From assembly GCA_036630325.1 (NCBI GenBank), contig CP142731.1, positions 868,001-932,000 on the forward strand: a stretch of DNA of 64,000 nt. Direction: 5' to 3'. The stretch comes from Vairimorpha necatrix. Lineage: Eukaryota. The notes beneath the pieces are model-generated. The model worked only from the letters and a program-made list of their open reading frames with translations, did no database searches and was not told where the DNA came from. This document shows, in pieces, positions 14,883 through 55,539 of the stretch; positions within the stretch are counted from its first letter, which is position 1; each line of letters opens with the position of its first letter. A program made the translations under genes and the position numbers.

Positions 14883-15628
14883 TGTTAAAGGCAATTGTAA
14901 GTTAAGGGGTAAATTTATTAAATCTATATTCTCAACACTCCCGCGCTAAATTTAGAATTAAGCGATAAAATTATCTACTACTTCCTACGCCTACTACTTG
15001 GCTCTCAAAATAAAAGTGCAAAATTATGTAAACTGACCATGGGCTGCGCTTTACTTTACCGCGTCTTACAATACCTTCTAGTACTGGTCTGCGAGGTACT
15101 TTCATTCCCTGTTTTAAAACATAAAGTCCATGGGCATGTGATTATTCTTTACACATGTCTTTCCAACAATGAAATCGGTTTTTTCCGTCTATCTCATTCT
15201 TCGACTATAACACAGTTTCTTTTTTATTTTCTTCTCTTTTTATATCTCTCTGTATTTTTGAACACTATTTGTTCAGCTATCTTGCCACGATAGCCTATAT
15301 GTGAATAGTGGAATTACCACTATACTCAATCTCGACAAACCTTATGCCAGATCTTATTACAGTCAATACTGTTTCTCCATAGCTCTTCATAGCTACTTAA
15401 GTCTTCACCTATCCGAATCCATAGACTGATGCAAGCCATCAACTTCTTTTCTGTTAAACAACCAACCATTTCCTTTCTAACCTAGACTGCATTTTTTACG
15501 TCTTATGCCTCGACAGAACTTACGACCTCTTCTTTTGTTTTTATTTGGGTTCAATAATTTTTTTTCTCCACCATGTTAAAGACAATTGTAAGTTAAGGGT
15601 TAAATTTATTAAATATATATTCTCAACA
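14883..15628 (-). mobile_element. Non-coding TRIM-like LTR element with 55-bp LTRs, copy 1
   Basis: TG...CA direct repeats at 14883-14937 and 15574-15628; 5-bp TSD ATAAT; on the minus strand PBS-like TGGTGGAG follows the 5' LTR and GCGGGAG precedes the 3' LTR; empty site with a single ATAAT at 42039-42043. Confidence 0.85.
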
Positions 15629-15796
15629 ATAATAATGAACTTAATTGATAAAATATAAATAAATTGGATAGTGTGATTTTTTTTAACTTTAAATAATATC
15701 ATATTTTGTCTAAAACTATTATTTATATAACAGAAAAAAATTAGAATAATTAATTGACAACACAACTATATATAAATTAGAAATCTATATTTAAAA

Positions 15797-16618
15797 CTAA
15801 CATTCACTTGGCATTTGAAGAGAACTATTAATCTCATTACGTTCTTTTATTTGAGTAGTTATGTTTAATCTGATTAAAAAAATACTGCTATCAATGTGAA
15901 ACAAAATTCCAATAAAAACACAATGATCAAACTTATTACATTAAAAAAAATAAAAATAATATCAATGCTGACACCCTAGTAATCCATATGACACAAAAAT
16001 AATATAAGAAAAGTAAAAAATGTTTTTTCTATCAATTCTGCTATTACAAAGAAAATAATCTTGTCAAGACCTATAAAATTAAAAATATGAAATAATTGTA
16101 GTTCGTTTTGTTCATGTAAACAAATATCACGCATTATTAAAAATGTTGCACATATCAAGCTTGCTTTTTTGCCTGTGTCTATCATTTTGTCAATAATGTA
16201 TAGCTTAAATTTTTTTAATCTACACCTGCTCTATTGTTATAAAAAGCACGTCATTGGCTTGATTCATTGAAAGCATCAAAAAAATCAAAGTAACACAATG
16301 TAATATTATGGAAATTACGATTTTCGAAAAGGCTTTGATTAAGATACCAATAAAAATTACAACTATCAATGAAAACACCTACAGACCATAATTTGAAGTC
16401 TGTATGTAATTTTTCTTATAAATAAAATTTCGAACAAAGGCAATCTCCAAAGTAAATAAAATTTTTGTTAATGACAATAGATACTTAGACATTAAAAATC
16501 TACATTCTTTGTTTTTACATAGCAGAAATTGAGTAAGTGCGGAAGTTGTTATTGACATATCCAAAAATAAATTCGCAAAATGCAAGCCAATATAAATAAT
16601 ATGTTTTGAATACTTCAT
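15797..16618 (-). pseudogene. Frameshifted pseudogene of membrane family (subfamily B)
   Basis: ORF fragments 16379-16618 and 15976-16185 match the intact paralog at 42202-43038; several small deletions break the frame. Confidence 0.9.
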
Positions 16619-19139
16619 TTATGGGTATTAAAAAATCGGTTTTATATTTGTTTTGTTGATATTAAATGTATGTTTGTATTGATAAAATATTTTTAAAAAC
16701 AATTATTAATTTAAAAATAATAAGAATAAATTTTACATATAAACAAAAAGTTTTAGGGTATATATATAATTTTTTCTCAAAACAAAAGTTTAAGGAGTTT
16801 GTTCAGTATTTTTTTTAGTATTGATCTATAAATATTATGAAAATATATTATTTTCCTGTAAAAACTGTTATAATTTGATCATGCATGATTGACAGGTAAT
16901 AGAAGTAACATTAAGAACAAACAATTAAACATTGAAATATTTTTTTGACAGAAAAATTTATAGCCTTAGAGTATGAGGTGTAAAAGATTATTAAGAAATA
17001 TGTAAATAGTTAGTACAAACCGATTAATAATTATTTAAAGGCTTTACACATAATTTGCATCTATATGTTTCGAAATGCAGACGCTTTATGAATAGGAAGA
17101 AGTATGTTTCGAAAAAAACAAAACTTATAAAACTTATAGTCTGTGTGTAGTTTGTGATTGGAGAATAAAAATTAGTTAAACATTAAATTGTGACATAGTT
17201 TATAATATTAAACAAGAAAGAGACTTTCATAAGCAACATGTATACAATAAATAATGACTTATGAGGTTGGAGAGAATTATTTAACACATATCAAAATAAA
17301 TTCGTCTTACTAAATTTTAAAAAAATTAGGAAAACAATTAATATGTGTATTTAGGGGACCAAGAAAAATCTTTTCTTTTTTTATGGCATAAATGCTCGAA
17401 TTTAACAAAAAAACAAAATTATTATGAATATAGCTAAAGGATAGCAAAGTAAAATTCTAAGAATTTTTTATAAGAATAATTAAAAAACCCGACAAAATCA
17501 CATACTTTAATTTCGTTAGTATGAATATAGTTTGTATTGTTACTGTTTATTGGTTTTTTCATCTTCACATCCTTCGGGGCATGTTTCCACATGTGTATGT
17601 AATTTGGGGAGTCGCGTATATTTCTTTAAAACATAGCAGGCAAAAATGGAGAATACATATTTACAGTGTTTTCTAGTCTCCAGTGCAATCTTAATACCGT
17701 TAGAGATATTTTTCTTAACAATATATATTTGAAAAATTTATTTCTAAAAGTGATAATTCTTACAACATTTATTTTTTCTTTTTTTATTCAGACGAGTTTA
17801 AACTAAAATTGGCCATAATTTATAATTGAAATTGATTTAAATATTTAAGTAATTGATTGAATAAAAACAAAAAAAAATTTAAGCATAAACTTAAACAAAA
17901 TATTAGTTTAACATTAAAAACTAAATACAATAATAATAATGCGATGCATTTTCAATTGTCAACTAAGTAATTCACTTTTTTTATAAATATTATATATCCA
18001 TTCACTTCAAGACAATATAAATAGCAGAAAATTATCATAAAAACATAAAAACACCATAATAAATTATCTTTTCATTAATTCGTTTAACATAAATTTCATT
18101 AGTCAATTTTTCGATTAAATGTTTAAAAATAACGTTATATTTTTTTTGTAGAATTTTTGTAATATATCATTTTGCTGGTTTTTATAAAGTAATCTCCAAG
18201 TTTATCATTTCTGTTTAATATATTCTATACTTTGACAATTAATTAATAAATTTTCACCTCTTCATAAATTCGTTGATTTATAAAGTGAACTGTTTCGTAA
18301 GTACAATAATTTTGTAATATTCAATTTTAACTGTTTTTTAAAATTTTTTTTTATTTTTGTGGTACTTTGATTCTATGCAATCACATGTAAGTATATATCG
18401 AATAATCTCAGTATTGCAATCAAGGCTTAAACTGAGGTGATATATAAATACTTTTTGTCTGTAAATTTTTTAAATATTAATTGTATGTTTTTGTATCTAC
18501 AATTATATCTATAAAATTCTTATGTCTTTTTGCTAGTTTTATTTTCACTATAGCATTTTTGTGGTGCACAGATTTAATCAAAGCACATCTTGGCTTTTAT
18601 AAAAACCAATACAAAATATAATTTTTTATACCAATCTAAAACGTTCACAAAGTCTATAGCTACCAAAACTACATTTATGCAAATTAAAGACTATTAAAGT
18701 ATAGATACCTTAAGGATATCAATGTAAAGAGTACTATAGACAAAATTTCGTACCGTTGGAAAAAGAACTAAAATACGGAAAAAAGCTACGAAAAAGTTTG
18801 CAGGTCTAACTTGTTTTTCATAGTTTAAACTTGTGTTATCCATTAATAAACTGAAAAAGACAGTAAAATTCGAAAAAATATTAAATTCACTTAAGATGAT
18901 TGAAAATATATTTTTTAATTTTCTTAATAAATGTTTATAAAAAAGTACTCAAAATTATTAAAAAAACAAAACAAGTTTACTTAAAATTACTAGAATGATT
19001 AGATTCTTTAGGTACTATTAATACGCCATCAATCTTGTTTACACATTTTTCTTCCATTTGAATGGATCCTCTATTATTACAACATGCATCAAAAAATAAT
19101 AAGCCAAGTTTTAACGTTAGAATTACTGTAAATATAAAT

Positions 19140-20757
19140 GGTGACCGGAATTTTCGTCCCGGTGGTAGGGGTTAAAAAAATAAAAAAATAAAAAATCTCG
19201 GTTTTTTTATTTTTTTATTTTTTTAACCCCTACCACCGGGACGAAAATTCCGAAAAAAATTTAAAAATAAAACTTTAATATTTCAATAATTTCAAAGACA
19301 AAATCTAAACCAAACCCTTCATCCACAGTTTTATTCAAAAAATCAGCTAGCCGAATCTCTTTTTCAATGTATTTTTGTTTACGTTCAAAAACATGATTTA
19401 AAATTGTTTGTTGGATTATCTTGATTCGCACTATATCTTCTTCATCCTTTAATTTGCTCACTAATAGATAAAAACTGTATCTACTTGTACCAAATGTGTT
19501 TTTAAAGGTATTATGCCAACCTTCAATCGCATTATTAGTTCTTGGAAAATCTATATCCATATTATTTCTCGTATGCCACAAATTCGGCGGAAAACGACAT
19601 CCTAAATCAATATAATTTGTAAAGAAATAGGCATATAACTCAGTCAAGCATTCAGGGAAATTTCTGTCTTGTTTTAATTCCAAAAAAGTAGACAATATTT
19701 CGTCATATTCAACATATGCAAGTGCCGTAAGAGACAAAACAAATTTTTTCACCATAGGTGAACATGTGTAAACAGAAGAAAGTCCTGAACTTTTAACACG
19801 TCTATCAATAGCCTTGGCCAAGTGAAAAAGACAACCCGAAATTTGACAATCCGGGAAAATTATTGAAAATGCTCTTATCGCAGCATACTCAAAATCGGTT
19901 TTTATCAACCTTGGGTTGAGCTCTGGAAACCTTCTCTTTAACATTTGAAACAAAAAAAAATAGGTTTCGAAACTTTTATCTTTTAAAATTGCAAATATAA
20001 TCGGAAATACATGCGCTTCACGGATAAAACTAATTGTGTAAAGTTGATAATATGGAATTGGAACCACCGTAAAGGTCCCATCCATCGCCCACATGTCATA
20101 TAGAGCCAGTTTTTCCATGGCCGAATCTGTATAAAAAACTATTATACTGTCATTGGGTTTATCACTCCCGTAATTTTCAGGCCCATATCGATACCATTGT
20201 TCGCCTGTATGACTGATTAATAAATCAGCACATAAACCCAATGTTTGGTTGGCGTATGGTTTTGGATTAAAGAAATTTAGCCTAGCTTTCCTTAATATTC
20301 TCGTAATAGGCTCAATAGGGCCTATTGCGGCGATTGTTTCTTCACCAGCTCCTCTTAAGGAAGAAAAAAAAATGTTTCTAGGAGAATCTTTGCCAGAGAT
20401 AATTTCCCGTTTCATTTTATCTATTTTATTCTTCCTACAGACCTGTTCAGGATTTGGTTCATGATTATGAGGCGAAGAAATAATAAAGGATTCGAGATTA
20501 TTGACGTAAACAATACTACTAATGGCCTTGGCATTACAGCTTCGTACAATGCAGCGCCACTTTATAGTAGTATTGTTGATTCTTTTTTTCTCGTAAATAT
20601 ATAGATTTTCATCTATTATTTGGTCCATATTTCTTTTGCTTTTGATTATCCTTTTTGTCCCGGTCATAGGGGTAAAAAATTAAAAAATAAAAAAGTTCGT
20701 TTTTTTTATTTTTTAATTTTTTTAACCCCTATGACCGGGACGAAAAGACCGGGTACC
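19140..20757 (-). mobile_element. Mutator-like (MULE) DNA transposon, copy 1
   Basis: 1618 bp, near-identical inverted copy of 51933-53550; each end is a long palindrome; the flanks show no TSD. Confidence 0.92.
19261..20667 (-). CDS. MULE transposase with FLYWCH-type zinc finger
   Basis: 468 aa with WRC..C..HNH, MDGTF, TDFE, CLFH and RTNNAIEGWH motifs. Confidence 0.92.
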   Translation of the reverse strand: MTGTKRIIKSKRNMDQIIDENLYIYEKKRINNTTIKWRCIVRSCNAKAISSIVYVNNLESFIISSPHNHEPNPEQVCRKNKIDKMKREIISGKDSPRNIFFSSLRGAGEETIAAIGPIEPITRILRKARLNFFNPKPYANQTLGLCADLLISHTGEQWYRYGPENYGSDKPNDSIIVFYTDSAMEKLALYDMWAMDGTFTVVPIPYYQLYTISFIREAHVFPIIFAILKDKSFETYFFLFQMLKRRFPELNPRLIKTDFEYAAIRAFSIIFPDCQISGCLFHLAKAIDRRVKSSGLSSVYTCSPMVKKFVLSLTALAYVEYDEILSTFLELKQDRNFPECLTELYAYFFTNYIDLGCRFPPNLWHTRNNMDIDFPRTNNAIEGWHNTFKNTFGTSRYSFYLLVSKLKDEEDIVRIKIIQQTILNHVFERKQKYIEKEIRLADFLNKTVDEGFGLDFVFEIIEILKFYF

Positions 20758-23240: not shown

Positions 23241-24030
23241 GAGGTGCCCTTAGATCAGTGGTAGAAGGCAATGCTTCCATTTAGCAATGGCTGGGTTCGA
23301 TTCTCAGGGGCACCAAAATTGTTTCTACTTTCTATGGTGCAGTTGGAACAACTCAGATGATAAAAATGTCCACGATAATCATTAAGTTAATTCAATGAAC
23401 CTCATGTGTGTACAGCCACAAAGGGATTAGCATCTAATGTAGAAACGCACCTCAAAGTTAAAAAGCAGTATAACCCTTGTGGGTTACTTAATGATACATA
23501 AAAGTATCTAATGGGTACTGCCTAGTTGGAACCCATGGCTGGTGCTCTCTGGGGTGGAATCTCAGAGCTAACTATGAGCCTAGACGAAGCAGGGCAATGG
23601 AAGGTCAAGTGGTCCCTATCCTATAAGATTCTGTAAAGCGCTGGCCGAAACTAGTGGGAGACTGTGGTCAACGCAACCCAACAAAAACGCCGGGCTGATG
23701 ATGTGGTCGTGTAAGGTATCGTGTGTGCAATAAAGATGATTGTAGGGACCTTTGAGACAGTACGATGATGTCTCTCCTCGGGTTTTTTATAACCATGCCC
23801 GTTAAGTATATCCGCTGTGAGTTCACCCTGGACGCGATTTGAGGTATAAATGGGAAGTGTTCTCCTGGAGCCAAAGTCTAATTAAAACGGCGGAGCTTGG
23901 TGCGCCGGTAAGTTGTATGGAGGGAGTTAAAGTGAGTAAGAATCTCACAGTGCCAGTTGGATGAGGCTCACACAAATCCCTCTGGTCCCTATGTAAGGTT
24001 TCTCCCTACCTCTTACTTGCAAGAAAAAAA
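23241..24030 (+). mobile_element. tRNA-derived SINE-like element, copy 2
   Basis: Full-length similarity to copy 1, A-tail, degenerate TSD (CACCCTTAATGCCGT / CACTTTATGCCGT), empty paralogous site near 48240-48252. Confidence 0.85.
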
Positions 24031-33335: not shown

Positions 33336-36300
33336 TAATTCATTGGAAATATTATCAAACGATGTGTTTTGTAGCGTTTCTGCATTTTTTTGTAGAAATA
33401 ATTTTAATAAGTACTCTGATGTTTCTTATAAATGATAAAACTTTTTATTTTGCAATCAAAACAATGAATTTATAGTATTTATTTTAAATTTTGCAAAAAC
33501 AAAGGTCTGCTTTGTGATAATTATTTCATATTTTTCATTGCATAATAAATAATAAAAGAATGTGACTTATAACAACTTTTAGGAATTAAAGAATTAGAAA
33601 AAATGAATAGAAGCGTACTTATAAATACGATAAAATATATTAACAACTTTTGAACATATTGTAAATTACTATCATCTGACATTTTGCTTGATTTTGATAC
33701 TGAATGTTACATGAATAAAATTGACCTCAATAATGAGACAATGTATGCTATTAACAATATATAATAAATCTTATTTAAAAAAAGTTTTTTAAATGCTTTA
33801 ATTTTAATTAGGTAAAAAAAATTTATTATATTTATTTACCAAGAAATAATTAACCATCATATCGATATCTTGTAAATTATATAATGATATATACTGAAAA
33901 TACTAAGAAAATAATATCAATGTATACAGGACAGAATTAAATAAAGTCGATGATATTTTCATTAATAAAAATCAAATGATTTAATGTTAGAAAACAATGA
34001 TAATAAATTAGAAAGGGTTAATAAAATCATCAAAATGTAATTAGCGTTAATTGTTGTAAAAATAACGTAAAAAAATAACAACTAGATTGTTTAAATGATA
34101 AATACAAAGATAAAAAAATAAATTACATTAATTACTTAAAAAATATTTTAAGGCAAAAATTTTAGAAAACTCCAGAAAATAAACAGCATCTTTTTTATAA
34201 AAGCTTTGAAAAAATTTACAGTGGAAACACATAATAAACATTTAAGAATTTGTAATAAAAAAATGCTAACTAAATTCTTAAATAAGAAGATGGATTGAGG
34301 AATAAATTAGGCAAATTATTTTTGACTATTACATTGAGCTGAAAGAGTTAGAATATATGGTGAATATTATAGACGAAAATTTAATGGCAAGTACAAAAGT
34401 AGAGAGATAATACATTTCGCTATTTTAAAAAAATGAATGCGAAGGAAAATGTTATGAATAATAAAAAATGATATTGAACATATGCTGTAGAGTATATACC
34501 CAAAAGTGAGTTTCGAATTAGTGTAATCATTAAAAATAAATGAAAAATATTCCTTAATATTCAAATTATGTTTGACTGTATTGAATTTAGTGAAGTTTTA
34601 AACAAAGAACTAAGAGTAAATATTCATGACGAAAACATACAAAATTTATGAAACTAAATATATTAAAAAATAAATAAATAACAACTTTAATTTACATAAT
34701 ATATCATATTATCAGCATCTTCTAATTTAGAATATTTTTATTTGCTTTATCATAATAACAATCTGATATTACTTCAATATAAATTATAAGCTAGGACGAA
34801 TTTCAATTATTTGCAAAATAAAAACAATAATGTTTGATTAAGGTAAAGTATGCTTGTCTTAATTTAAAGTATAATTCTAAAATTTTTTATACCTTTATAG
34901 ATAAACTTTAAAATCTTGTAGAATAAAAATTGCAACTTAAAATATATAAAAGACAAGTTTATTTTCACAATAAAGATACTTATGCATTGTTTTAATTTTT
35001 TTAATGATTCGGATATACAAATCTTCAACCGTCAATTCTAAACAAACTGAAAGCATCAACAGATATTTTACTGTAAAAAAAAACATTATGTTTTTGATTA
35101 TTATACATTCGCCATGAAATAGATAAAACATGTCTGTTGATGACTTAATGAAGATTGCAGCGATGCCGAAAGGCTTATAAAGTTAGAGATAGAACGCAGT
35201 GTCTTTTGATTTGTCCTAACAAAAAGCCTTAATTTAGCTGTGTTAAGTGATTTTTTACTTATAATTTCTTTCCGAAGGTATGAATTACGTATTACTTATA
35301 AATATATATATTACGTTATAAATGTAATAAACATAAAATGAAACGTTTTATACTGATTAATATCCAATTATAAAATTTTTTTGCAGGATTTTATTTAATT
35401 GTTAATTACTATCATGCATGAAAAATATTTTTTTTTCATTAATTTTGCATTAAAAAAAATTTACTTATACAATATGTGGTATCAGTAGCTTAAAATACTG
35501 AAACAACATTGTTTATGTTGGTGTTGAAAAAAATTAAAGAAAAAAAATTTCTAATAATACGAGGTAATAATAAAAATGTATTTATAAGGGAGCTTTATTA
35601 ATATATTATGTTGAAGGAGTTTACAAGCATATGGGGGTTTTTTATTAAATATTATAAAGATACCAACAAATTATAATATATAAAGATCCGAAAATTTTGA
35701 CAAAATTGTTTTAGTTACATAGCTTTTGAAAAAAAATTTAAAATATCAATGAAGATAGGAATTAGCAAACTTAACTAAGTATAATAATGATAGCAAATAA
35801 AGCTTAAACTGTACACCATGTAAATTAAGATAATCTCTTTGAGCAAAAACCTACTAAAAAGTAATTCTATGCATAAAACGTTTATGTTTAAACAAAACAA
35901 TGTTTTAATAAGAAGTTTTAGCGAAAGAATATGGGCCAAATGTACAATGTATTTGAAAACCTTAAGAAAATAATAAGAAACAAAAAAATACTGTCATTAA
36001 AGTATTTTAACCCTTGTTAGTCTGATGTAATTGTTATTGCTCTAATTATAAATTTTTACCTAAAATCGACCATAAGGAACATGGAAATTTCAAAATTTTT
36101 TTCATATAATTTTTAACGTAGTTATTTAAGATTTAAACCGAAGATAAAATTTCTATAGTATGAAATTTTTAAAACAAATATAAGTCAACCTTAATTTTTA
36201 TTAGCTTGAAATCTTTGTAGGTATTATATGACTAAATTAATAATTGATGCATATAGAACCGAGCAAAGAAGGGGTAAAATGAGGTCTCGGTTTATTTTTA

Positions 36301-36519
36301 AAGAATCAAAATACATAAATCAATTTTAAAGTTTATTAATACAATCGTCGTCGTGTTTGTGAAAAGTATGGCTAATGTTACATTACAAGTTTTCACTTTC
36401 GGAATACAAATTTATATAGTGATTTTCAAAATTTTAAACTTCTATAATACAATAATTTAGTATAGAAAAACTTTTAGAATAAAAAAAGAACGTTCGCGTA
36501 AATTTACAATTTTATAGAA

Positions 36520-36557
36520 TGTAGGGTTTAGAACCCTTAATAAATAAATGGTTAACA
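36520..36557 (+). repeat. 5' LTR (38 bp)
   Basis: TGTAGGGTTTAGAACCCTTAATAAATAAATGGTTAACA, identical to 39548-39585. Confidence 0.92.
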
Positions 36558-39473
36558 TGGCGAACACAAGGATGAACAGGGAAACAAGAGAGTCCCGTAG
36601 TCAAGAGACTAGAACATTAGAGAAAGAAACAATTAGGATAGATAAGAGACTAAAGTTAATATTGAAAGTTGAGTGGAAAGATGTTATGGATTTGGCATCT
36701 GCGAACTTGCAGGATTATATTTTTGAAAATTTTTGTGACGGAAGGAGCAGTTGGGAGGAAATTTATAAAGGCTTACAAAAATGAGCAGAATTTGAGAGAG
36801 AGTCAGAAGAAAGACAAGAAATGATTAAAGAGATTATGGATAAAGTGTTGAAAGAGTTTAGGGAAGAAAGAAAAGAAAATCTTAGGATGTATAGGAAAAG
36901 AAGAGAAATCAGAGAAACTACAAAATGTTTTATATGTAAGAAAGAAGGGCATTACGCTAGAGAATGTCATGAAAGTGTAGCTGGTAGGGAAAAATATAAA
37001 ATTAAAAAGGAACAAGTTTTACAGAAAGAACCAATTATCAACAATGAAGGGAAAAGATGTAAAACAGTAAATAAGTTAGAAAATTTAATTGAAAAGTATC
37101 CGGAAGTTTTTAAAGAATCAGAAGAAAAGATAAAATATCTCACAGGAGAGAAGTGTCCAATAAATACTAAGCAAGGTGAAAAGGTTGTGAAAAGAGGGCA
37201 GAATGTGCCATACTACCTTAGGGTGAAATTTGAGGAGTACTTGAATAAGTTGGAAAATAGAGGGGTTATAAGACGTTCCAAAAGTGAGTGGAGGAGTCCA
37301 ATAAGAGCACTTGAAAAACCAAATGGGGACGTAAGATTGGTAAGCAATTTGATGGCGTTAAACGATTTGGTTGACAAGGACCCGTACTCACTACCGTTAA
37401 TTAAGGATATTATGAGAGCCACACAGGGGTCAAAAGTATTTACGGTTATCGACTTAAAAGAAGGGTTTTATCATATTGAGATTGAGGAGCACCATAAGCA
37501 CAAAACAGCATTGGAAGTGAATGGTCGAGTATACGAATGGAATAGTATGGTTATGGGGTTTAAGAATTCGCCTCATATAATGCAGAGAGTAATGAACAGA
37601 GTTTTAGATGAATTCAGAGGTAAAGGCGTGGAAGTATATATGGATGATATAGTTATTCATGGTAAAGACGTAAGAGTGCATGACGAGTTACTAGAGAGGG
37701 TAATTAAAAAGTTTAAAGAGTGTGGGTTGAGAATAAACCAAACAAAGATACAATACAAAAAAGATGAGGTGATGTTGCTGGGAGTAACAATTAATGGGGA
37801 GGTCATGGGACCGAATGAGATTAAAAAGCAGGAGACATTGGAATATAGAAAACCTGAGAATGTTAGAGAGTTAAGAAGATTTTTAGGACTAACTGGTTGG
37901 TTTAGAGACTTTATTCCCAACTATGCGTATAGAACAGTAAGGCTTACTGAGGCTTTAAAGAAAGATGTTAAGTGGAATTGGACGGAGGATATGGAAAGAG
38001 CTTTTGAGGATATGAAGCAAGGCTTGAGAGATATGAAAAAGTTGAAGATTCCGGACGGAAAAAAGCTATTTAGAGTAAGAACTGATGCGTGTGATACGGG
38101 GATCGGAGCAATTCTATTACAAGAAAATAAAGAGGGTGAGTGGATTCCGATACAATGGGCATCGAAAATGTTGACTCCTACCGAGCGAAGATATACGATA
38201 AGTGAGAAGGAGATGTTGGCGGTGTTTTTTTGGAATAAAGAAGTTTGAAAGTGATTTGAGAGGAAGGAAATTTCATTTGATGACGGATCATAAAGCATTA
38301 GCAGAGATCAGAAATAAGCCATACTTCAATAATAACAGAATAAACAGATGGGTAGAACAGATACAAGAGTTTGACTTTACAATAGAGTATGTGAAAGGGG
38401 AGTTGATGACAGATGCAGATGCGTTAAGTAGGCAGTATGATCAGGTAGAAGTTTCGGATGAACAAAAAGAAAAGGACAACAAGAGAAAAGAAGTGATCGA
38501 AAAACAAATTTTGGGAAAAAAGCAGAAACATATTAAAGAAAAGGACGGTAAACAGTATTGGGAATTTTCCACAGGTGAGGTGAAAGAGATATTGAGCCTA
38601 GATAGTAGAGAACATGAAATAACAAGAGTACATGAGGAGTTAAACCATAGAGGTGTCAAAGGCACTTATTATAACATTAAACAAAGATGGTATTGGCCTG
38701 GTATGAAAGATCATATTAATAAGGTAATTAAGAATTGTGAAATATGTGGGATTAACAATAGGAAAAACACAGGAGGATGTGATTTCGTAGTAACTAGAAA
38801 GAAATTGGAGAAAGTGGCGTTGGATTTAATGGACATAGGTGGAGAGAATAGGTATGTGTTACTGGGTATTGATTACTTTACTAGAAGGTTATGGGGTTCG
38901 AATTTGAGATGTAAAGAGAGTAGTGAAGTTATAGAGGTATTACAAAAGTGGATAAGGGAAGATGGATTTCCAGAGGAATATGTGACAGACAACGGAAAAG
39001 AGTTTGTAAGTAATAGATTTAAAGAATGGTGTAGTATTAATGATATTAAACATAGGAAAGTGGGCTTAGAAGCTCATAGGAGTAATGGTAGAATCGAGAG
39101 ATGCATCAGAACTATAAGAGAGACATTGATAAAGCAAAATGATGGGAATATTTCTGAAAAGATAGAAAGAGCAATCAAAGGATATAATAATACACTACAT
39201 ACAGCAATAAAATGTACGCCGATGGAAGCGTGGAGAGATCAAACTGCTGAAGTTATAATTGAAAATGATGAAAATGGAAAATATGCTGGTCGGTTCAAGA
39301 GAAGACACAGAGAGACATTTACAGTAGGCCAAGAGGTAAGAATCGCTAGGAGAGAAAATTTAGGTACACGTGCGAAAACAGACAAGGGAAGATTCACGGG
39401 TCGCGGAAGGATCGTAGCTATAAGTGAAAATGATTCATATATTGTGAGACTACTGGATGGTAAAATTGTATAA
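36557..39473 (+). pseudogene. Interrupted gag-pol polyprotein (CCHC knuckle, RT, RNase H, integrase)
   Basis: CFICKKEGHYAREC knuckle; RT IDLKEGFYH and YMDD; RNase H TDAC and EKEMLAV; integrase HHCC and TDNGKEF...NGRIER. In-frame TGA at 36782-36784 and a frame break at the T7 run 38225-38231. Confidence 0.88.
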
Positions 39474-39547
39474 AGAGGCATTATGATTTGAAAGAGATAA
39501 GGAAGAGTTGTTTAGAAGATGGAGAGACTACCCGTCTGGAGGGGGAA

Positions 39548-39585
39548 TGTAGGGTTTAGAACCCTTAATAAATAAATGGTTAACA
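39548..39585 (+). repeat. 3' LTR (38 bp)
   Basis: Identical to the 5' LTR, preceded by the PPT and followed by TSD TAGAA (39586-39590). Confidence 0.92.
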
Positions 39586-40093
39586 TAGAATAAGATATAG
39601 TAAAAAATTTAATCTGAACCATTTAATATATTGTAAATGTTCCCAGCGGACTATATTTTTTAATACAAAAACGTATCAAATTAGATACTATATACGTTGC
39701 AAAATAAGCCTCAAATCCCGAAACTATAGATAAATTGTGCAGATTTTAATAAAGAAACCAAGTTTGTGTTAAATAAATATGGCGTAAAAAAAATGTTTCT
39801 ATTTACTAGTTTATACCTTTCATTTTTCGTTGCCAGTCTATGTATAAAGACTAAAATATTCTTTTAGTGAAGATATACAACATTACAAAAATCGTGAAAT
39901 TTAATTCTTTTTATGAACAAACCAATAACGAATAATACAGTATAAGTATATAGAATCAATTTATAAAAATGTACTTAATGTAAAGATCTTTAATTTTTTC
40001 GTTTCAAAAAAAAAAATAAAATCTAATGATTTTTATTTACAAAATGATCGAAAGTATAAATATAAATTTTAAGCCACCGTATATTCTGAATGC

Positions 40094-40915
40094 TTATACA
40101 ACTTCGGATGTTCCATTAATTATTCTGCGTTTTTTTATTTTTCTGATAATATTTGTTCTAATTAAGAAAAATATTACTATTAAAGTATAACTAACTTCTA
40201 ATAGATAAATTAGAATCAATCGGTATACCTTATAAAAGCATAATAATACGATAATCGTAGACAATCCAAAGATCCACACAGATGCTATCACAATATAGGA
40301 AAAAATAAAAGAATTTTCTCTTTTGATATGGCTCTTTGAAACAAAATAATCAATTGTTAAGAATGCCAAATTTATAATATGAAATGTATAAAATTCTAGC
40401 TCTTCTTTTGTAAAAAAATCTTGCATCGCATAGAAAAATTCCCAAATTAACGTTACTTTCTTGCTTGTATTAATCAACTCTTCGACAATATATAGTTTAA
40501 ATTCTAAATAATCAGTACTAGCTCGTTTATTATACAAATGAAAAACTACATCATTATCTTCATTCATTGTAAGTGCCAAAAAAACAATTGTTATACAATC
40601 AACCACGATTCCTAATATAATTTCTGCGTTCCATTCATTTATTATACCTAAACAAATAACAAATAACAGGGAAAATCCTCTACAAAGCAAAATTTGCAAT
40701 CTAAAAGCAATACTTTTTATAAAGTAAAATCCCGAATAAAATGCCATTTCAAAAATAAATAAAATTTTCGTGAAAATTAATAAGTATTTTGACAATAATA
40801 TCTCAGAACCGTTTTGTTGTTGAGTATGATTTAACGAATAATTGGTGATAAACATGTCTAAAATAATGCTCGTAAAATACAGTGTCAGATAAATCATATG
40901 CTCTATAAATTTCAT
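40094..40915 (-). CDS. Multi-pass membrane protein (subfamily A), 273 aa
   Basis: Start moved from 40975 to 40915 because of the CCCAAAA-ATG context and alignment with paralogs (MKFIEH). Confidence 0.9.
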   Translation of the reverse strand: MKFIEHMIYLTLYFTSIILDMFITNYSLNHTQQQNGSEILLSKYLLIFTKILFIFEMAFYSGFYFIKSIAFRLQILLCRGFSLLFVICLGIINEWNAEIILGIVVDCITIVFLALTMNEDNDVVFHLYNKRASTDYLEFKLYIVEELINTSKKVTLIWEFFYAMQDFFTKEELEFYTFHIINLAFLTIDYFVSKSHIKRENSFIFSYIVIASVWIFGLSTIIVLLCFYKVYRLILIYLLEVSYTLIVIFFLIRTNIIRKIKKRRIINGTSEVV

Positions 40916-42201
40916 TTTTGGGGATATTTTAAAATAAATCGTTTGTAAGTAATATAAACAAAATAAAATGGCCATTATGCTTTCAATTCTATTTATTCAA
41001 CGATTTTTTCATAATATACAATTCGTTTATAATATTTAATTTCTACACAATCATACCAGCGTAATATTAATTTGGGCCAAGTTTACAAATAAAAAATTTA
41101 AAAAGTGAGATGATCTTTACAAATGGTCCATGACGACACGCCGACGTGTTGCGCGTTGAAATAAGTGACATTTCCGAACAAAATTTAGAATCAGCCTTGA
41201 AAACATTCTATGGATTCAGGAGTCTTATTTTGAATTTATATGAACATGTATTACTATTGGGAAATTTTCAGGTGTTTACTTTCTCAAAATGTTTTCTCTT
41301 TCAGAAATTGTACTTTATAATTTACACATAACGTTTACCCCATATTTTTTCAAAACTTATATCGAATGTGATTCCAATGCATTAAATTCGTCTAATTGAT
41401 TCTTGTGCATATTATTTCAATTTCTAAAAATTAACTATAAAATATTCGGAAGCATTGATAAAAATTTAGTCGTATAAATTTACTTGAGCGTATAGAATTT
41501 CAAATAACTATATTTGTTTATTATTTGTATATAATTTTTTGTAAACAGAAAAAAATCATAATTAAAAAATTTTTTCTATAAAATATTTAAATTTTATATT
41601 ATTGTTTATCAATCTCAACTTTTGCCTGTACATGAAAAATAATCTACATTGCTTTTCGCTAGGAGTGTTAAGTTTATTTATATTATTGATTGTAGTTCGC
41701 GTGAAAATGTAAGAGAATAAGTTTTTTATGTGGTATATTAATGCCACAAATTAATAGGCATTGATTTATCTGTAATATTACAAGCAGTTATATTTTAATA
41801 TAATAATATTAGTAATTTGATATAATGCAGTGTACAAAATTTCCATAATTTATTTTTAGATTTAAAAATTTCAAATCTCATTTGAGTTTCTTTAAATAAA
41901 AAATTAGAATTTCAATAATAATTAGAAGATAAAATAGAAGAGTTTTAAAAAGGCACAAATAGCTAATACGAAAAAAAATAAGCACATACATGTAAAAATA
42001 AAAACTTACTAAAAATCCCTAGAATATTGTTCAAAATCATAATATTGTTCTTGACAAGTATAATATAACTAAATTTAATTAGTTATATTTTTTTACGTTT
42101 TTAATGTCATATATTGTCTAAAACTTTTATTTACGTATAAAAAAATTTATAAAGATGAGTTGACAACACAATTATATATCTATTATAATATGTATTTAAT
42201 A

Positions 42202-43038
42202 TTAACATTCACTCGGCATTTGAAGAGAATTGTTAATCTCATTACGTTCTTTTATTTGAGTAGTTATATTTAATCTGATTAAAAAAAATACCATTATCAA
42301 TGTAAAACAAAATTCCATTAAAAACACAATTATCAAACTTATTACATTAAAAAAAAATAAAAATAATATCAATGCTGACACCCCAGTAATCCATATGACA
42401 CCTAAAATAATATAAGAAAAGTAATAAATGTTTTTTCTATCTATTCTACTATTACAAAGAAAATAATCTACAACTAGACCTATAAAATTAAAAATATGAA
42501 ATAATTGTAGTTCGTTTTGTTCATGTAAACAAATATCACGCATAATTAAAAATGTTGCACATATCAAGCTTGTTTTTTTGCCTGTGTTTATCATTTCGTC
42601 AATAATGTATAGCTTGAATTCTAGAAAATCTACTCCTGCTCTTTTGTTATATAAATGATAAAGCACGTCATTGGCTTGATTCATTGAAAGCATCAAAAAA
42701 ATCAAAGTAACACAATGTAATATTATTGAAATTACGATTTTCGTAACGTCTTTGATTAAGATACCAATAAAAATTACAAATATCAATGAAAAACACCTAC
42801 AGACCATAATTTGAAGTCTGTATGTAATTTTTCTTATAAAATAAAATCCCGAATAAAAGCCAATCTCCATAATTAATAAAATTTTTGTTAATGACAATAG
42901 ATACTTAGACATTAAAAATCTACATTCTTTGTTTTTACATGGCCGAAATTGAGTAAGTGCGGATTTTGTTATTGACATATCCAAAAATAAATTCGCAAAA
43001 TACAAGCCAATATAAATAATATGCTTTGAATACTTCAT
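42202..43038 (-). CDS. Multi-pass membrane protein (subfamily B), 278 aa
   Basis: Intact ORF, CCCATAA before ATG, family motifs, CKNKEC in the first loop. Confidence 0.9.
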   Translation of the reverse strand: MKYSKHIIYIGLYFANLFLDMSITKSALTQFRPCKNKECRFLMSKYLLSLTKILLIMEIGFYSGFYFIRKITYRLQIMVCRCFSLIFVIFIGILIKDVTKIVISIILHCVTLIFLMLSMNQANDVLYHLYNKRAGVDFLEFKLYIIDEMINTGKKTSLICATFLIMRDICLHEQNELQLFHIFNFIGLVVDYFLCNSRIDRKNIYYFSYIILGVIWITGVSALILFLFFFNVISLIIVFLMEFCFTLIMVFFLIRLNITTQIKERNEINNSLQMPSEC

Positions 43039-46000
43039 TTATGGGTATTGAAAAATCGGTTTTTATAAATGTTTGTGTTTATATTGAATGTATGTTTGAT
43101 TGAAAAAATATTTTTTAAAACAATTATTATTAATTTAAAAATAATAAGAATAAATTTTACAGATAAACAAAAAGTATTAGAATTAATATATAATTTTTTC
43201 TCAAAGCAAAAGCTTAAGGAGTTTGTTTAGAATATATATTAGTATTAATCAATAAATATTGTGAAAATATATTATTTTCCTGTAAAAACTTTTATAATTT
43301 GATCATGCATGATTGACAGGTGATAGAAGTAACATATACAACAAACAATTAAATATTGAACTATTTTTTTGACAGAAAAATTTATAGCTTGTGAGTATGA
43401 CGCATAAAAGACTATTAAGAAATTTGTAAATAATTAGTACAAACCGATTGATAATTATTTTAAGGCTTTACACATAATTTGCATCTATATGTTTTCAAAA
43501 TGCAAACGCTTTATGCAATAGGAAGAAGTATGTTTACAAAATACAATAGCTCTTAAAACTTATAGTCTGTGTGAGTTTGTGATTGGAGAATAAAAATTAG
43601 TTAAACATTAAATTGCGACAAAGTTTATAATATTAAACAAGAAAGAGACTTTTTTAAGCAATATGTTCATATTAAATAAAGACTTGTGGGTTGGCGAGAA
43701 TTTAAAAACATATATCAAAATGAATTTTGTCATACAAAAATTATAAAAAGTTTATGAAACAATTAATAAGAGTATTTAGAAGATAAAGGGAAATCTTTTC
43801 TTTTTTATGGCATAAATGCTTGAATTCAACTTAAAAACTAGGGCATTATGAAAATAGCTACAGGTCAGCAAAGTGAAATGTCAAGAATTTTTATATAAGA
43901 AATAATTAGAAAAATTTGTTATATCGTGGAATTTGGTTTCATTAGTCTGAAAAGAGTCTGAGATATACATAGCATTTAAATTTCTTCATCTTCATATCCT
44001 TAGTGGCATATTATCTCATGTGTATGTAATTGAGAAAGTCCAGTATATTTCCCTAAAACATAGCAGGCAAAAGAGGAGAATATTTATTTACAGTGTTTTC
44101 TAGTCTCCGGGGCAATCTTAATACCGTTAGAGATCTTTTCTTCAACAATATATATTTGAAAGCTTTATTTTAAAAAGTGATAAATCTTACAACATTTATT
44201 TTTTTTAATTCAAACGAGTTTTAACTATAATTGGCCATAATTCGAAATTGATATTGAATAAAATATTTAATTAATTGATTGAATAAAAACACAAAATATT
44301 TAAGCATAAACTTAAACAAAATATTAGTTTAACATTAAAAACTAAATACAATAATAATAATGCGATTCATTTCCGGTTGTTAATTATGTAATTCACTTTT
44401 TGTATGAATATTATATATCTCTATCACTTCTTGACAGTGATAAATATTAGAATACTATCATAAAAAACAAAAACACCATTAAAAGATTATCTTTTCGTTG
44501 ATTCCTTAAACATAAACTTATTTAATCAATTTTTTTATGAATGCATAAAAACAATGCTAAACTTTTTTTGTAGAACTTTTGTTTATAATAATTTTTCTGG
44601 TTTTTTTAAAGTTATCTATAAGTTTATCATTTTTCTTTATAATATTCTCTACTTTAGCGATATGCATTTATAAAAGTTCACCTCTTCATAAATTCATTTT
44701 TTTATAAAGTGAACAGTTTTGTAAGTAAACAAATTTTTGTAAGATTAAATTTTAACTGTTGTTTGAGAAGTTTTTTTTATTTTTGTGGTCTTTTGATTCT
44801 ATGAAATCACATGTAATATATATTGAATACTCTCAGTCTTGCAACCATGGCTTAAACAGAGGTAATACTCAAAACTATTTTTTCTATTTTAAAATATTTA
44901 TTGTAATATAAAGAAGATCTACTATTATAACTATAATTGTTTAATGACTTCAGATCTATAAAAAATATATCTTTTGCAAAGTCTATCTAATTAAAGTCTT
45001 ATTGTGGTACACAGACGTACATCAAAGTACATATTGCCTATTATAAAAAGCAAGTTAAATTTATAATTTTGTTATACCAATCTAAAACGTTTCAGAGTCT
45101 ATAGTTACATTGATCAGTTATGTATTTCTCTTTAGATCAAAGAAAAGGATAAGACCTTGAAATATAATTTGAAGAAAGCAATATTAAAAATAAACTGTTT
45201 TGTCATTAAATAAAAGTAAAAGACGAAAAATAAAGAAGAAAGCTTGTTTTTTACTGGTCTATTACGTGATTCGAAGTTTAAAACTAGTGATGGCCCACTG
45301 AGATTTAAAAGAAGTAAACTCAAAAAAAAAAATATGAAATGCACTTTCTGTTTGATTACATACATTTTTATTGTCTTTTAAATGTTTATAAATAGTACTC
45401 AAAAATATCAAAAAAACAAAACAAGTTTACTTAAAATTAATTGATTCATTAGTTTCTTTAGGTACTATTAATAACACGTCAATCTTGGTGTCACATTTTT
45501 CTTCCATTTAAATGGATTCTCTCTCATTGTAATATTCATCAAAAAATAATAGGCCAAGTTTGAATGTAAAAAATGTTAAGATTATAAACACTAAAATGTT
45601 TAAAATAAGAAAGACAGAATCTAAAAACTCATTATAATTTTGAATAGGCTGTAGGTATGTATAATTTTTCGGATCACTCATACCCCTGAAAACTTATTTT
45701 TTTTATATAGCATAAATTTTAATTAAAAGTAAAACTAGTCTGTAAAGCATTTAGTATAACTTTATTCGTCTCTGATAAAATTAAGATGTCCTGTATTTTA
45801 TTTCAATTTTGACATGCATCACAAAATATTTTTTAAAAAACTTTGAAAAAAAATTTACAATAAAAAATGCTTTTCCTCTAAAGTGATAAAAACAAGACTT
45901 CTTATCGCCTGAATAATAAGTATTACGTTCTTTGGCCGTCCATGAGACAACATGCTAGCTTTTTCTTGATTAGCAAGTATTATAGTTTTTGTAATAGTAC

Positions 46001-51932: not shown

Positions 51933-53550
51933 GGTACCCGGTCTTTTCGTCCCGGTCATAGGGGTTAAAAAAATTAAAAAATAAAAAAAACGAACTTTTT
52001 TATTTTTTAATTTTTTACCCCTATGACCGGGACAAAAAGGATAATCAAAAGCAAAAGAAATATGGACCAAATAATAGATGAAAATCTATATATTTACGAG
52101 AAAAAAAGAATCAACAATACTACTATAAAGTGGCGCTGCATTGTACGAAGCTGTAATGCCAAGGCCATTAGTAGTATTGTTTACGTCAATAATCTCGAAT
52201 CCTTTATTATTTCTTCGCCTCATAATCATGAACCAAATCCTGAACAGGTCTGTAGGAAGAATAAAATAGATAAAATGAAACGGGAAATTATCTCTGGCAA
52301 AGATTCTCCTAGAAACATTTTTTTTTCTTCCTTAAGAGGAGCTGGTGAAGAAACAATCGCCGCAATAGGCCCTATTGAGCCTATTACGAGAATATTAAGG
52401 AAAGCTAGGCTAAATTTCTTTAATCCAAAACCATACGCCAACCAAACATTGGGTTTATGTGCTGATTTATTAATCAGTCATACAGGCGAACAATGGTATC
52501 GATATGGGCCTGAAAATTACGGGAGTGATAAACCCAATGACAGTATAATAGTTTTTTATACAGATTCGGCCATGGAAAAACTGGCTCTATATGACATGTG
52601 GGCGATGGATGGGACCTTTACGGTGGTTCCAATTCCATATTATCAACTTTACACAATTAGTTTTATCCGTGAAGCGCATGTATTTCCGATTATATTTGCA
52701 ATTTTAAAAGATAAAAGTTTCGAAACCTATTTTTTTTTGTTTCAAATGTTAAAGAGAAGGTTTCCAGAGCTCAACCCAAGGTTGATAAAAACCGATTTTG
52801 AGTATGCTGCGATAAGAGCATTTTCAATAATTTTCCCGGATTGTCAAATTTCGGGTTGTCTTTTTCACTTGGCCCAGGCTATTGATAGACGTGTTAAAAG
52901 TTCAGGACTTTCTTCTGTTTACACATGTTCACCTATGGTGAAAAAATTTGTTTTGTCTCTTACGGCACTTGCATATGTTGAATATGACGAAATATTGTCT
53001 ACTTTTTTGGAATTAAAACAAGACAGAAATTTCCCTGAATGCTTGACTGAGTTATATGCCTATTTCTTTACAAATTATATTGATTTAGGATGTCGTTTTC
53101 CGCCGAATTTGTGGCATACGAGAAATAATATGGATATAGATTTTCCAAGAACTAATAATGCGATTGAAGGTTGGCATAATACCTTTAAAAACACATTTGG
53201 TACAAGTAGATACAGTTTTTATCTATTAGTGAGCAAATTAAAGGATGAAGAAGATATAGTGCGAATCAAGATAATCCAACAAACAATTTTAAATCATGTT
53301 TTTGAACGTAAACAAAAATACATTGAAAAAGAGATTCGGCTAGCTGATTTTTTGAATAAAACTGTGGATGAAGGGTTTGGTTTAGATTTTGTCTTTGAAA
53401 TTATTGAAATATTAAAGTTTTATTTTTAAATTTTTTTCGGAATTTTCGTCCCGGTGGTAGGGGTTAAAAAAATAAAAAAATAAAAAAACCGAGATTTTTT
53501 ATTTTTTTATTTTTTTAACCCCTACCACCGGGACGAAAATTCCGGTCACC
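51933..53550 (+). mobile_element. Mutator-like (MULE) DNA transposon, copy 2
   Basis: Perfect 9-bp TSD ATACTGGAT (51924-51932, 53551-53559), palindromic ends, intact transposase. Confidence 0.95.
52023..53429 (+). CDS. MULE transposase with FLYWCH-type zinc finger
   Basis: 468 aa; differs from copy 1 at one residue I could see (HLAQA vs HLAKA). Confidence 0.93.
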   Translation: MTGTKRIIKSKRNMDQIIDENLYIYEKKRINNTTIKWRCIVRSCNAKAISSIVYVNNLESFIISSPHNHEPNPEQVCRKNKIDKMKREIISGKDSPRNIFFSSLRGAGEETIAAIGPIEPITRILRKARLNFFNPKPYANQTLGLCADLLISHTGEQWYRYGPENYGSDKPNDSIIVFYTDSAMEKLALYDMWAMDGTFTVVPIPYYQLYTISFIREAHVFPIIFAILKDKSFETYFFLFQMLKRRFPELNPRLIKTDFEYAAIRAFSIIFPDCQISGCLFHLAQAIDRRVKSSGLSSVYTCSPMVKKFVLSLTALAYVEYDEILSTFLELKQDRNFPECLTELYAYFFTNYIDLGCRFPPNLWHTRNNMDIDFPRTNNAIEGWHNTFKNTFGTSRYSFYLLVSKLKDEEDIVRIKIIQQTILNHVFERKQKYIEKEIRLADFLNKTVDEGFGLDFVFEIIEILKFYF

Positions 53551-53874
53551 ATACTGGATTATACGAGTATAACTTAATAATGTACATTTTAAACTAAAAG
53601 TAATTGCACAAAAAAATATACAATTTTATAAAATGATAATTCATATCGCTATGAGTTTTTTTGCTTATTTTCTTGTATACTTATATATAATTTGATAATT
53701 TCGTCTCTAGGTTTCCTTTTTATAATAATGTCAAAATCTGTATACTTCTGGCTTTGCTCCAGTCAAATTTCTTGTAATTCTTGCTATTCCGCTCATGCAT
53801 TTTGTTAAATAAGCACTTTCTCCTTGCCTGCATGCCATTTCAATGAGAACAAATATCTCGATTTTCATAAAAAT

Positions 53875-54237: not shown

Positions 54238-55539
54238 ATGAAAAATGATCTTGAAATTATTAAAAATCAAGCTACTATAAATATTGGCACTATTGGTCAT
54301 GTGGCCCATGGTAAATCCACTATAGTAAGAGCTATTAGTGGTATTAGTACTATAAAATTCAAGGCCGAATTAGAAAGGAATATTACTATAAAACTGGGCT
54401 ACGCTAATGCCAAGATTTATAAATGTCAAGGCACTTGTAAAAGGCCTGACTGTTATCAAGCTTTTAATTCTAGTACTCCTCCTGAATTAAAATGTACTAT
54501 TTGTCATGGCAATTTGCTTTTAATTCGTCATGTGTCATTTGTAGATTGTCCTGGACATGATGTCCTCATGGCCACTATGCTAAGTGGTACTGCCATTATG
54601 GACGCGGCTCTGCTTCTCATTGCTGCTAATGAGCCCTGTCCCCAGCCCCAGACTACTGAGCACTTGTGCGCAGTGGAAGTTATGAATCTTAAGAAAATTA
54701 TAGTTGTACAGAATAAAATAGACTTGATTTCTAGAGAACAAGCTTTAGAACAATATGACCAGATACAAGACTTCTTAAAGAAATCTAATGCTTCTGGGCC
54801 TATCATCCCGACTGCCGCCCAATTAGGGGTAAATATAAATGCAATATTAGATTATATAGTAAATTACATACCAGTACCAGAAAGAGAAGAAGATATAAAA
54901 CCGAAAATGATAATAATAAGGAGTTTTGATATAAACAGGCCTGGTGCGACTTTGGATAGTCTTAGTGGTGGGGTTATAGGAGGAAGTTTAATACAAGGCA
55001 ATATTAAAAATGGAGATGAAGTAGAAGTCAGGCCTGGTTTGATAATAAAAAAAGGAAATAAGTTCGTCTGTCGTCCATTTGTGACTAAAGTGAAATCTCT
55101 TAAGGCCGAAAATAACATCTTAGAAAAAGCTTACCCTGGGGGATTAATAGGAGTAGGCACAGAAATAGACCCAAGTTTCTGTAAATCTGATCGACTAGTC
55201 GGCCAAGTCATGGGCCTAAAAGGCTCTTTGCCTCCAATTCGTCTAAATATTTCTATAAATTACGAGTTATTTCAGAAGACGATCGCCCACGATAAACAAG
55301 ACTTGAAAATTAAAGAACATGTCCAATTGAATATTGGCAGTACAATAACAGGAGGACAAATTAAGAATGTAGTACGAGATCAAGTATTTATAGAATTAAT
55401 TAAGCCTACATGCTGTGATATAAATGAGAGAATAGCTATAAGTAGAAAAATTAATAATCATTGGAGATTAATAGGGCATGGGTTAATAATAGAAGGGGAT
55501 GAGATTGAGCCGACATATTTTAAAAATTTTTTATTTTAA
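54238..55539 (+). CDS. GCD11: Eukaryotic translation initiation factor 2 subunit gamma
   Basis: QATINIGTIGHVAHGKST, ELERNITIKLGYAN, DCPGHDVLMATML, NKID and the C-terminal SR..WRLIG motif. Confidence 0.97.
   Translation: MKNDLEIIKNQATINIGTIGHVAHGKSTIVRAISGISTIKFKAELERNITIKLGYANAKIYKCQGTCKRPDCYQAFNSSTPPELKCTICHGNLLLIRHVSFVDCPGHDVLMATMLSGTAIMDAALLLIAANEPCPQPQTTEHLCAVEVMNLKKIIVVQNKIDLISREQALEQYDQIQDFLKKSNASGPIIPTAAQLGVNINAILDYIVNYIPVPEREEDIKPKMIIIRSFDINRPGATLDSLSGGVIGGSLIQGNIKNGDEVEVRPGLIIKKGNKFVCRPFVTKVKSLKAENNILEKAYPGGLIGVGTEIDPSFCKSDRLVGQVMGLKGSLPPIRLNISINYELFQKTIAHDKQDLKIKEHVQLNIGSTITGGQIKNVVRDQVFIELIKPTCCDINERIAISRKINNHWRLIGHGLIIEGDEIEPTYFKNFLF

Follow-up and report, generated by a model that had tools for sequence, protein, structure and literature searches.

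A gypsy-type retrotransposon bounded by 38-bp terminal repeats in a microsporidian genome

In a 64,000-nucleotide stretch of the Vairimorpha necatrix genome (contig CP142731.1, positions 868,001 to 932,000; hereafter the window), a 3066-bp Ty3/gypsy-type element at positions 36520-39585 (+ strand) is bounded by two repeats of only 38 bp. This locus raises the question of whether repeats this short are the genuine long terminal repeats (LTRs) of a retrotransposon. Textbook LTRs measure about 100 bp to several kb, and the programs that search for them use 100 bp as their default minimum. An earlier note, made from the sequence of the window, had described the element as a recently inserted gypsy retrotransposon with miniature LTRs. 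Our analysis indicates that it is very probably a recently inserted, now defective copy of a multi-copy, protease-less Ty3/gypsy-type microsporidian family with genuine 38-bp LTRs.

The two copies of the repeat (TGTAGGGTTTAGAACCCTTAATAAATAAATGGTTAACA) show no mismatch between them, and neither a third copy nor a solo LTR was found in the window at up to 3 mismatches. The exact match in fact extends over 42 nt (36517-36558 and 39545-39586), because GAA ends both the duplicated target site and the purine tract and T begins both TGG and TAGAA. As the earlier note had claimed, the repeats have TG...CA ends and are accompanied by a perfect 5-bp target-site duplication, a TGG primer-binding site and a polypurine tract, all of which can be read in the sequence flush with the repeats (Table 1). 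TGG directly adjoins the end of the 5' LTR, and the letters of this candidate primer site against which tRNA 3' ends would pair are TGGCGAACAC. Inspection of the LTR by eye for Tf1-like self-priming showed no stretch complementary to the primer site. Short repeats are common in AT-rich DNA and 15 repeat families are listed in the window, which would fit an origin of the pair by chance or as a long target duplication from a non-LTR insertion. None of 100 shuffled sequences gave any 38-mer match. The TG..CA ends, the primer site, the purine tract and the 5-bp duplication outside the repeat speak against this explanation, and it is refuted by the shuffles, by an empty site (below) and by the homology of the repeat with the LTRs of relatives. 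Its probability is next to nil.

Contigs from four public sequencing runs (X1-X4) were aligned to window positions 36000-40100. A 259-nt contig of X1 covers 36324-36520, runs on into the ten letters after the right-hand TAGAA, and resumes at 39603. TAGAA occurs once in this contig, the element is absent, and the shorter side measures 51 nt. The contig represents an empty orthologous site, exact but for an A-run one base shorter. The word depth of this contig is 3.7 and that of the neighbouring flank contig is 4.41. Between the X1 flanks and the window, 20 of about 440 aligned bases are different, and therefore X1 is a related organism and not the source of the window. Within the window itself, a diverged paralogous segment (about 12300-12520, where 12020-12352 matches 36093-36426 and 12455-14930 matches 39596-42089) also runs uninterrupted across the insertion site without the element. 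The element is thus an insertion with a 5-bp duplication, and the boundaries proposed in the earlier note are fixed by the X1 empty site and the paralogous segment. In X2, two contigs with other upstream sequence (agreement 0.7) lose their match at 36519 and one more does so at 36511, so that at least some other copies begin at or beside the same base.

These break points, at or just before the first base of the LTR, also bear on an assembly artefact, that is, a collapse of long LTRs to 38 bp or a mis-join. Repeats are often mis-assembled in general, and no specific support for such an error was found here. The element contigs of X1 and X2 end within the 38-bp repeat, which is expected of a repeat just above the word length of the assembler (31 in the Logan assemblies), and the same architecture is present in independent assemblies of relatives (L004, L037 and retro L, described below). 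We regard an artefact as highly improbable.

Over about 3040 nt, two long element contigs of X1 show 8 letter differences from the window copy. Their word depths are 60.6 and 65.3, about 15 times those of the flanks (about 4), and such contig depth ratios are no calibrated copy number. The depth and the near-identity point to a multi-copy family that was active recently. The earlier note had inferred a recent insertion from the identical LTRs. A perfect match of 38 bp has near-zero dating power, because divergence of several per cent would often leave no difference, but the conclusion stands on other grounds, namely the X1 empty site and the 8 substitutions relative to the high-depth X1 contigs. 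Element sequence at least 99% identical to the window copy was present in X1-X4, which comprise two differently labelled organisms as well as bat gut and freshwater metagenomes, and most of these element contigs either lack the window flanks or have flanks about 4.6% divergent. This spread may reflect closely related hosts or recent horizontal spread.

The order of the Pfam domains on the + strand is RVT_1 (6.6e-31), RT_RNaseH_2 (1.2e-23)/RT_RNaseH, Integrase_H2C2 (1.1e-14) and rve (1.2e-10), which is the gypsy order. A CCHC knuckle (zf-CCHC, 8e-4) lies at the Pfam cut-off (20.8 bits) and was found in all 25 homologues inspected. The closest annotated proteins are polyproteins of Nosema granulosis (76% identity) and of V. 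necatrix and V. apis (about 50-59%), with Enteropsectra breve also represented; relatives on viral contigs are just 25-31% identical and were set aside. The nearest Nosema and Vairimorpha polyproteins bear the names of gypsy-type elements and, together with the domain order and the knuckle, they uphold the gypsy assignment of the earlier note. The window copy is dead, its frame being interrupted at three points that are open in other copies (lesions 1 to 3 in Table 1); the open frame of the other copies was judged at these three sites only. At lesion 2, the T-run is one letter shorter at full depth in X1, X3 and X4, and in 61 of a depth of 161.9 in X2.

Among the first 261 residues, no retropepsin family was matched with E values as high as 10 allowed, and no Pfam gag or capsid family was matched by the approximately 125 residues preceding the zinc knuckle. 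A protease is listed in 0 of 34 full-length relatives (at least 43% identity) versus at least 25 of 86 more distant rows, and D[ST]G upstream of the reverse transcriptase (RT) is absent from 24 of 25 fetched relatives. A family without protease and full capsid domain might be non-autonomous and depend on a second gypsy family in these genomes for mobilization in trans, and the window does hold another integrase open reading frame (ORF). No partner with these LTRs or this primer site was seen, however, and recognition of a 38-bp end across families is unproven. Moreover, RT, RNase H and integrase are retained in the 34 relatives, which come from many sources and whose polyprotein ORFs are 865-1188 residues long, and this would be unexpected for passive riders. 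We consider mobilization in trans quite unlikely.

Short LTRs recur among the relatives. At the metagenome locus L004 (54% protein identity), TG..CA repeats of 39 bp lie at 540-578 and 3664-3702, with a mismatch at 1 of 39 positions; TGGCACCCAGTC follows the 5' repeat, AAGGCGGGGA precedes the 3' repeat, and the element has its own TTATA duplication on both sides. In L037 (67% identity) a 38-nt TGT..ACA 3' LTR follows GAGACTACCCGTCTGGAGGAGGGGA and aligns base for base with the window LTR; the 5' end of L037 lies off the contig, and the 3' LTR alone was compared. The 3' LTR of L003 is 49 nt long. At the place expected for the 5' LTR of L003 (73-109) there is a 37-nt palindrome with perfect arms and TG..CA ends, which is unrelated to the 3' LTR of that locus. 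L001 and L002, whose 3' side is cut by the contig end and whose 5' side is fused to another RNase H fragment, have no LTR pair, and no repeat pair was found in the truncated L038 and L039. The contigs of L037, L038 and L039 are filed under Clostridium and Turicibacter (bacterial) metagenome-assembled genomes; they carry microsporidian-type gypsy polyproteins at 34-37% G+C and are probably mis-binned eukaryotic DNA.

The remaining relatives bear on LTR length through their contigs and their protein ends. Contigs of 2.7-3.3 kb with ORFs of about 3.0 kb, which leave room for tiny LTRs only, account for 22 of the 34 close full-length relatives. Among 25 homologue N-termini, 12 show [N/H/Y/D]-M-[A/V] three to seven residues past the first M, the reading expected of NAC ATG G, in which the LTR end ACA is followed by TGG; 8 further N-termini start with M-[A/G/V] and 5 are truncated or different. 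The junctions vary among relatives and are of the MANT, MAT, MAPS and MAS types. Taken with L004 and L037, the repeat of 49-50 bp in retro L shows that the short LTR is a trait of the lineage and not a one-off, and the miniature LTR claimed in the earlier note is supported.

The polyprotein frame starts at nt 29 of the 5' LTR, passes through the primer site, continues across the purine tract and ends at nt 10-12 of the 3' LTR; this description rests on the frames of the window copy and on the three break sites in the other copies. The C-termini of homologues likewise show a translated purine tract and LTR start (..ETTRLEEGMLGY, ..GGDV..). The LTR can be divided accordingly into the ORF end (nt 1-12), a core AACCCTTAATAAATAA (nt 13-28) and the ORF start (nt 29-38). 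In each of the four LTRs examined, those of the window, L004, L003 and retro L, an AATAAA precedes the LTR end by 13-29 nt, which is the usual spacing between a polyadenylation signal and the cleavage site. CCC occurs within 10 nt 5' of the ATG in 10 of 12 other window ORFs of at least 150 residues (9 of 11 with the Mutator-like pair counted once), and in 4.8% of all 20-nt windows taken as a control. In the CCC-positive ORFs, the motif stands 1-4 nt before the ATG. The two exceptions, ORFs 8826 and 40094, may have mis-set starts. In microsporidia, 5' untranslated regions (UTRs) of less than 7 nt determined by rapid amplification of cDNA ends, a CCC-like motif just 5' of the start and an AAUAAA polyadenylation signal have been described (PMC2803860).

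We propose that the core in the 5' LTR would serve as a microsporidian-style gene start, with a CCC motif and a very short leader, and that the same core in the 3' LTR would provide the AAUAAA polyadenylation signal. Transcription would start a few bases past CCC, between about nt 18 and 28 of the LTR, and cleavage would fall at the end of the 3' LTR or just beyond. The resulting U3 would be about 17-27 nt, R about 10-20 nt and U5 almost nil. Comparably short R regions occur in some retroviruses. A tRNA 3' end would prime at TGG, and the very short strong-stop DNA would transfer via the short R. The purine tract would then prime the plus strand, integrase would join the TGT/ACA ends with a 5-bp stagger, and the protease-less Gag(NC)-RT-RNase H-integrase protein of about 1000 residues would work unprocessed. 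As regards the details (the core as gene start and poly(A) signal, the U3-R-U5 split and the unprocessed protein), we incline towards this scheme, though only by a little. The host is a microsporidian, given the identity of the eIF2-gamma gene of the window (54238-55539) with its counterparts in N. granulosis (74%), N. bombycis (72%) and Encephalitozoon cuniculi (70%). The suggestion in the earlier note that short microsporidian promoters and UTRs enable the short LTR gains indirect support from this host, from the frequency of CCC before window ORFs, and from the presence of CCC, AATAAA and an in-frame ATG in the LTR.

If, alternatively, the LTR had no promoter of its own and the element RNA came from neighboring read-through, the whole 38-bp LTR could act as the strand-transfer repeat. 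Strong-stop DNA copied off the flank would then mismatch the 3' LTR. In addition, CCC, AATAAA and ATG are retained in LTRs that otherwise diverge, and the high copy depth of X1 and X2 speaks for an element that drives its own expression efficiently. Transcripts that overrun gene ends and overlap one another have been reported in microsporidia (PMC2803860), and the longer CCC-to-ATG spacing in the LTR than in the host ORFs also fits a promoterless LTR. On balance we find such an origin of the RNA unlikely, and we retain the core as the putative promoter.

Two further motifs of the LTR had been pointed out in the earlier note, and both are present: AATAAATAAA and the inverted repeat AGGGTT-TAG-AACCCT. 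The hairpin of the latter folds with -5.9 kcal/mol (z = -0.24), and 78 of 200 shuffled sequences fold equally well or better. A 5-bp version is kept in L037 (z = -0.09), and the hairpin is absent from L004, L003 and retro L. With z-scores no better than chance, it was rejected as a functional element; it may merely reflect the GGG and CCC motifs.

Several observations weigh against our interpretation of the element and its LTR. Because of the three lesions, the window copy cannot be autonomous, and the uncalibrated depth ratios limit the reading of copy number. When the three tRNA genes of the window were compared by eye with the primer site, none fitted. L001, L002 and the 5' side of L003 are without a recognizable LTR. 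CCC is 11 nt from the ATG in the LTR versus 1-4 nt for the window's host ORFs, and a transcription start right after CCC would put AAUAAA at the 5' end of the RNA too. Finally, the absence of a protease could reflect dependence on another element.

Table 1. Window coordinates of the element's features and the observations supporting each (X1-X4, public runs; L003, L004 and L037, relatives; retro L, consensus from Anncaliia algerae)
Feature	Position	Strand	Basis or remark
Target-site duplication, left copy, TAGAA	36515..36519	+	Sequence; single TAGAA in X1 empty-site contig; paralogous segment of window
5' LTR	36520..36557	+	38 bp, TGT...ACA (TG..CA-type ends); sequence reading and repeat search
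16-nt LTR core AACCCTTAATAAATAA	36532..36547	+	Sole part of LTR non-coding in both copies; CCC at 36534-36536; two overlapping AATAAA at 36539-36548; putative function
Polyprotein frame start, gag-like N-terminal part	36548..36781	+	First ATG in LTR (nt 29-31); second in-frame ATG at 36557-36559 across LTR/primer-site junction; N-termini of homologues
Primer-binding site TGGCGAACACAAGG	36558..36571	+	Flush with 5' LTR; 3' extent uncertain; translated M-A-N-T-R
Lesion 1, in-frame TGA stop	36782..36784	+	X1 and X2 contigs have another letter at 36782, at full depth
Polyprotein, middle part	36785..38248	+	CCHC knuckle ~36923-36970; RT ~37313-37792; first part of RNase H ~37979-38233
Polyprotein, last frame	38202..39473	+	RNase H end 38214-38372; integrase zinc domain ~38607-38762; integrase core ~38832-39056; C-terminal part
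Lesion 2, frame-shifting run of 7 T	38225..38231	+	Contigs of X1-X4 one letter shorter; homologue consensus unbroken (EKEMxAVxxGxKKFE)
Lesion 3, local frame change and premature TAA	39468..39473	+	Contigs differ at 39468 and 39471; homologues go on with KKRHYDLK
C-terminal tail KRHYDLKEIRKSCLEDGETTRLEGECRV	39473..39559	+	Frame of other copies; stop TAG at 39557-39559 is nt 10-12 of 3' LTR; homologue tails ..ETTRLEEGMLGY, ..GGDV..
Conserved block GAGACTACCCGTCT	39524..39537	+	Just 5' of purine tract; alignments of window, L037, L004 and L003; also in retro L
Polypurine tract GGAGGGGGAA	39538..39547	+	Flush with 3' LTR; kept in L037, L004 and L003; other copies differ at 39546
3' LTR	39548..39585	+	38 bp, same letters as 5' LTR
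Target-site duplication, right copy, TAGAA	39586..39590	+	Sequence; X1 empty-site contig

Canonical Ty3/gypsy elements (Metaviridae, for example yeast Ty3) are about 5 kb or more in length and have LTRs of hundreds of bp; they encode a capsid and an aspartic protease, and gag and pol are usually in separate frames. The window element resembles them in the RT-RNase H-integrase order, the CCHC knuckle, the TG..CA LTRs, the purine tract and the 5-bp duplication, and it has a candidate tRNA-type primer site. It differs from them in its single frame, its lack of a protease and its 38-bp LTRs, both of which are overlapped by coding sequence. Of the features that define the Ty3/gypsy type, the domain order, the repeats with their duplication and the purine tract were thus found, and a retropepsin and an LTR of at least 100 bp were not.

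A closer counterpart exists in another microsporidian. Table S1 of Parisot et al. (2014), in the supplement, lists 50 complete gypsy consensuses of Anncaliia algerae with LTRs of 45-272 bp; 46 of them have LTRs of 105-272 bp and four are below 100 bp (45, 50, 73 and 90). Microsporidian gypsy LTRs of 45-50 bp were thereby already in print, a precedent absent from the earlier note. One entry, "Aalg retro L", is listed with an LTR of 50 bp, an ORF at 32-3049 and a total length of 3127 bp; its printed ends show a 49-bp TG..CA repeat. Like the window element, it has a Ty3/gypsy polyprotein, a length of about 3.1 kb and a tiny TG..CA LTR. The two also share the junction of GTTAACA with TGGCG at the LTR end and primer site, a GAGACTA.CCGTCT block and G-rich tract before the 3' LTR, an ORF that begins in the LTR, and AATAAA and CCC within the LTR. 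Unlike the window element, retro L has an LTR 11 nt longer in which CCC directly abuts the ATG, its listed ORF ends before the purine tract and not within the 3' LTR, and its host is a microsporidian of a distant genus. The remaining gypsy consensuses of A. algerae are likewise single-polyprotein elements with short LTRs, but they are 3.6-4.3 kb long and their LTRs are mostly 105-272 bp.

The retro L type may be described as an element of 3.0-3.2 kb with a polyprotein of about 1000 residues, an LTR of at most 50 bp that holds the start codon, and a translated junction of ..ACA with TGG; all of these were found in the window element. The element belongs to the retro L lineage, which is in print just as a row of a supplementary table and a consensus sequence, undiscussed. 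The main text of Parisot et al. (2014) gave no match for "short LTR", "LTR length" or "protease". In the literature on Nbr elements of Nosema bombycis, on short or shortest LTRs and on microsporidian LTRs, no discussion of LTRs below 50 bp was found, other supplements and subscription journals being outside this scope. The new points are the LTR-to-LTR reading frame and the 16-nt core.

In the literature found, the shortest LTR called remarkable is that of the SMART elements of plants, at 85 bp (Gao et al. 2012; PMC3281118). As described in that paper, these elements are 292 bp long, with repeats termed "very short", TGT..ACA ends and a 5-bp duplication. SMART/TRIM elements and the window element thus have in common very short terminal direct repeats, TGT..ACA ends and a 5-bp duplication. 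In that description, however, SMART/TRIM elements are non-coding and non-autonomous and their LTRs are more than twice as long. A TRIM/SMART identity of the window element was ruled out by its encoded RT, RNase H and integrase.

The window, of 26.7% G+C, contains no other copy of the element; the nearest sequence is an integrase ORF, with a match at 9051-9692 and 25.6% identity. This stand-alone 453-residue ORF (8826-10187, + strand) combines an integrase zinc domain with an rve core, lacks RT, and resembles the "rve only" consensuses listed for A. algerae. A Mutator-like DNA transposon is present as two inverted copies, 19138-20757 (- strand) and 51933-53552 (+ strand), which are 99.94% identical over 1620 bp. 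Each copy encodes a 468-residue FLYWCH and MULE transposase (19261-20667 and 52023-53429), and the terminal inverted repeats are about 100 nt long (19151-19247 versus 20652-20746, 87.6%). The window also holds large diverged segmental duplications (12020-19117 versus 36093-45567, 76.9% and 82.5% identity), and the retrotransposon is in one duplicate only of this pair. A family of 273-293-residue ORFs without a Pfam match has at least 6 copies (ORFs at 6005, 12945, 29228, 40094, 42202 and 47071). Two similar tRNA genes, at 3850-3922 and 23243-23315, were assigned to Met (CAT) by ARAGORN and sit in an 88%-identical duplication of about 790 bp (3850-4639 versus 23243-24030).

These results indicate that 38-bp LTRs suffice, or did so until very recently, for a protein-coding gypsy family. 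They show how far U3-R-U5 can shrink where host promoters and leaders span a few bases, and they give a testable partition of the LTR. The absence of a protease raises the question of whether an unprocessed Gag-Pol can replicate an LTR element. With default length thresholds, elements of this kind would be annotated as LTR-less RT/integrase genes, and the counts of LTR elements and the dating of insertions in microsporidian genomes are likely biased. It is a tentative idea, to which we give somewhat less than even credence, that the lineage represents a minimal self-sufficient LTR retroelement, in which all but a 16-nt promoter/poly(A) core would be coding, R would be about 10-20 nt, U5 near nil, and proteolytic maturation absent. 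If this is true, it would set a lower bound on what an LTR must contain, and standard LTR finders would overlook a whole class of active elements in compact genomes.

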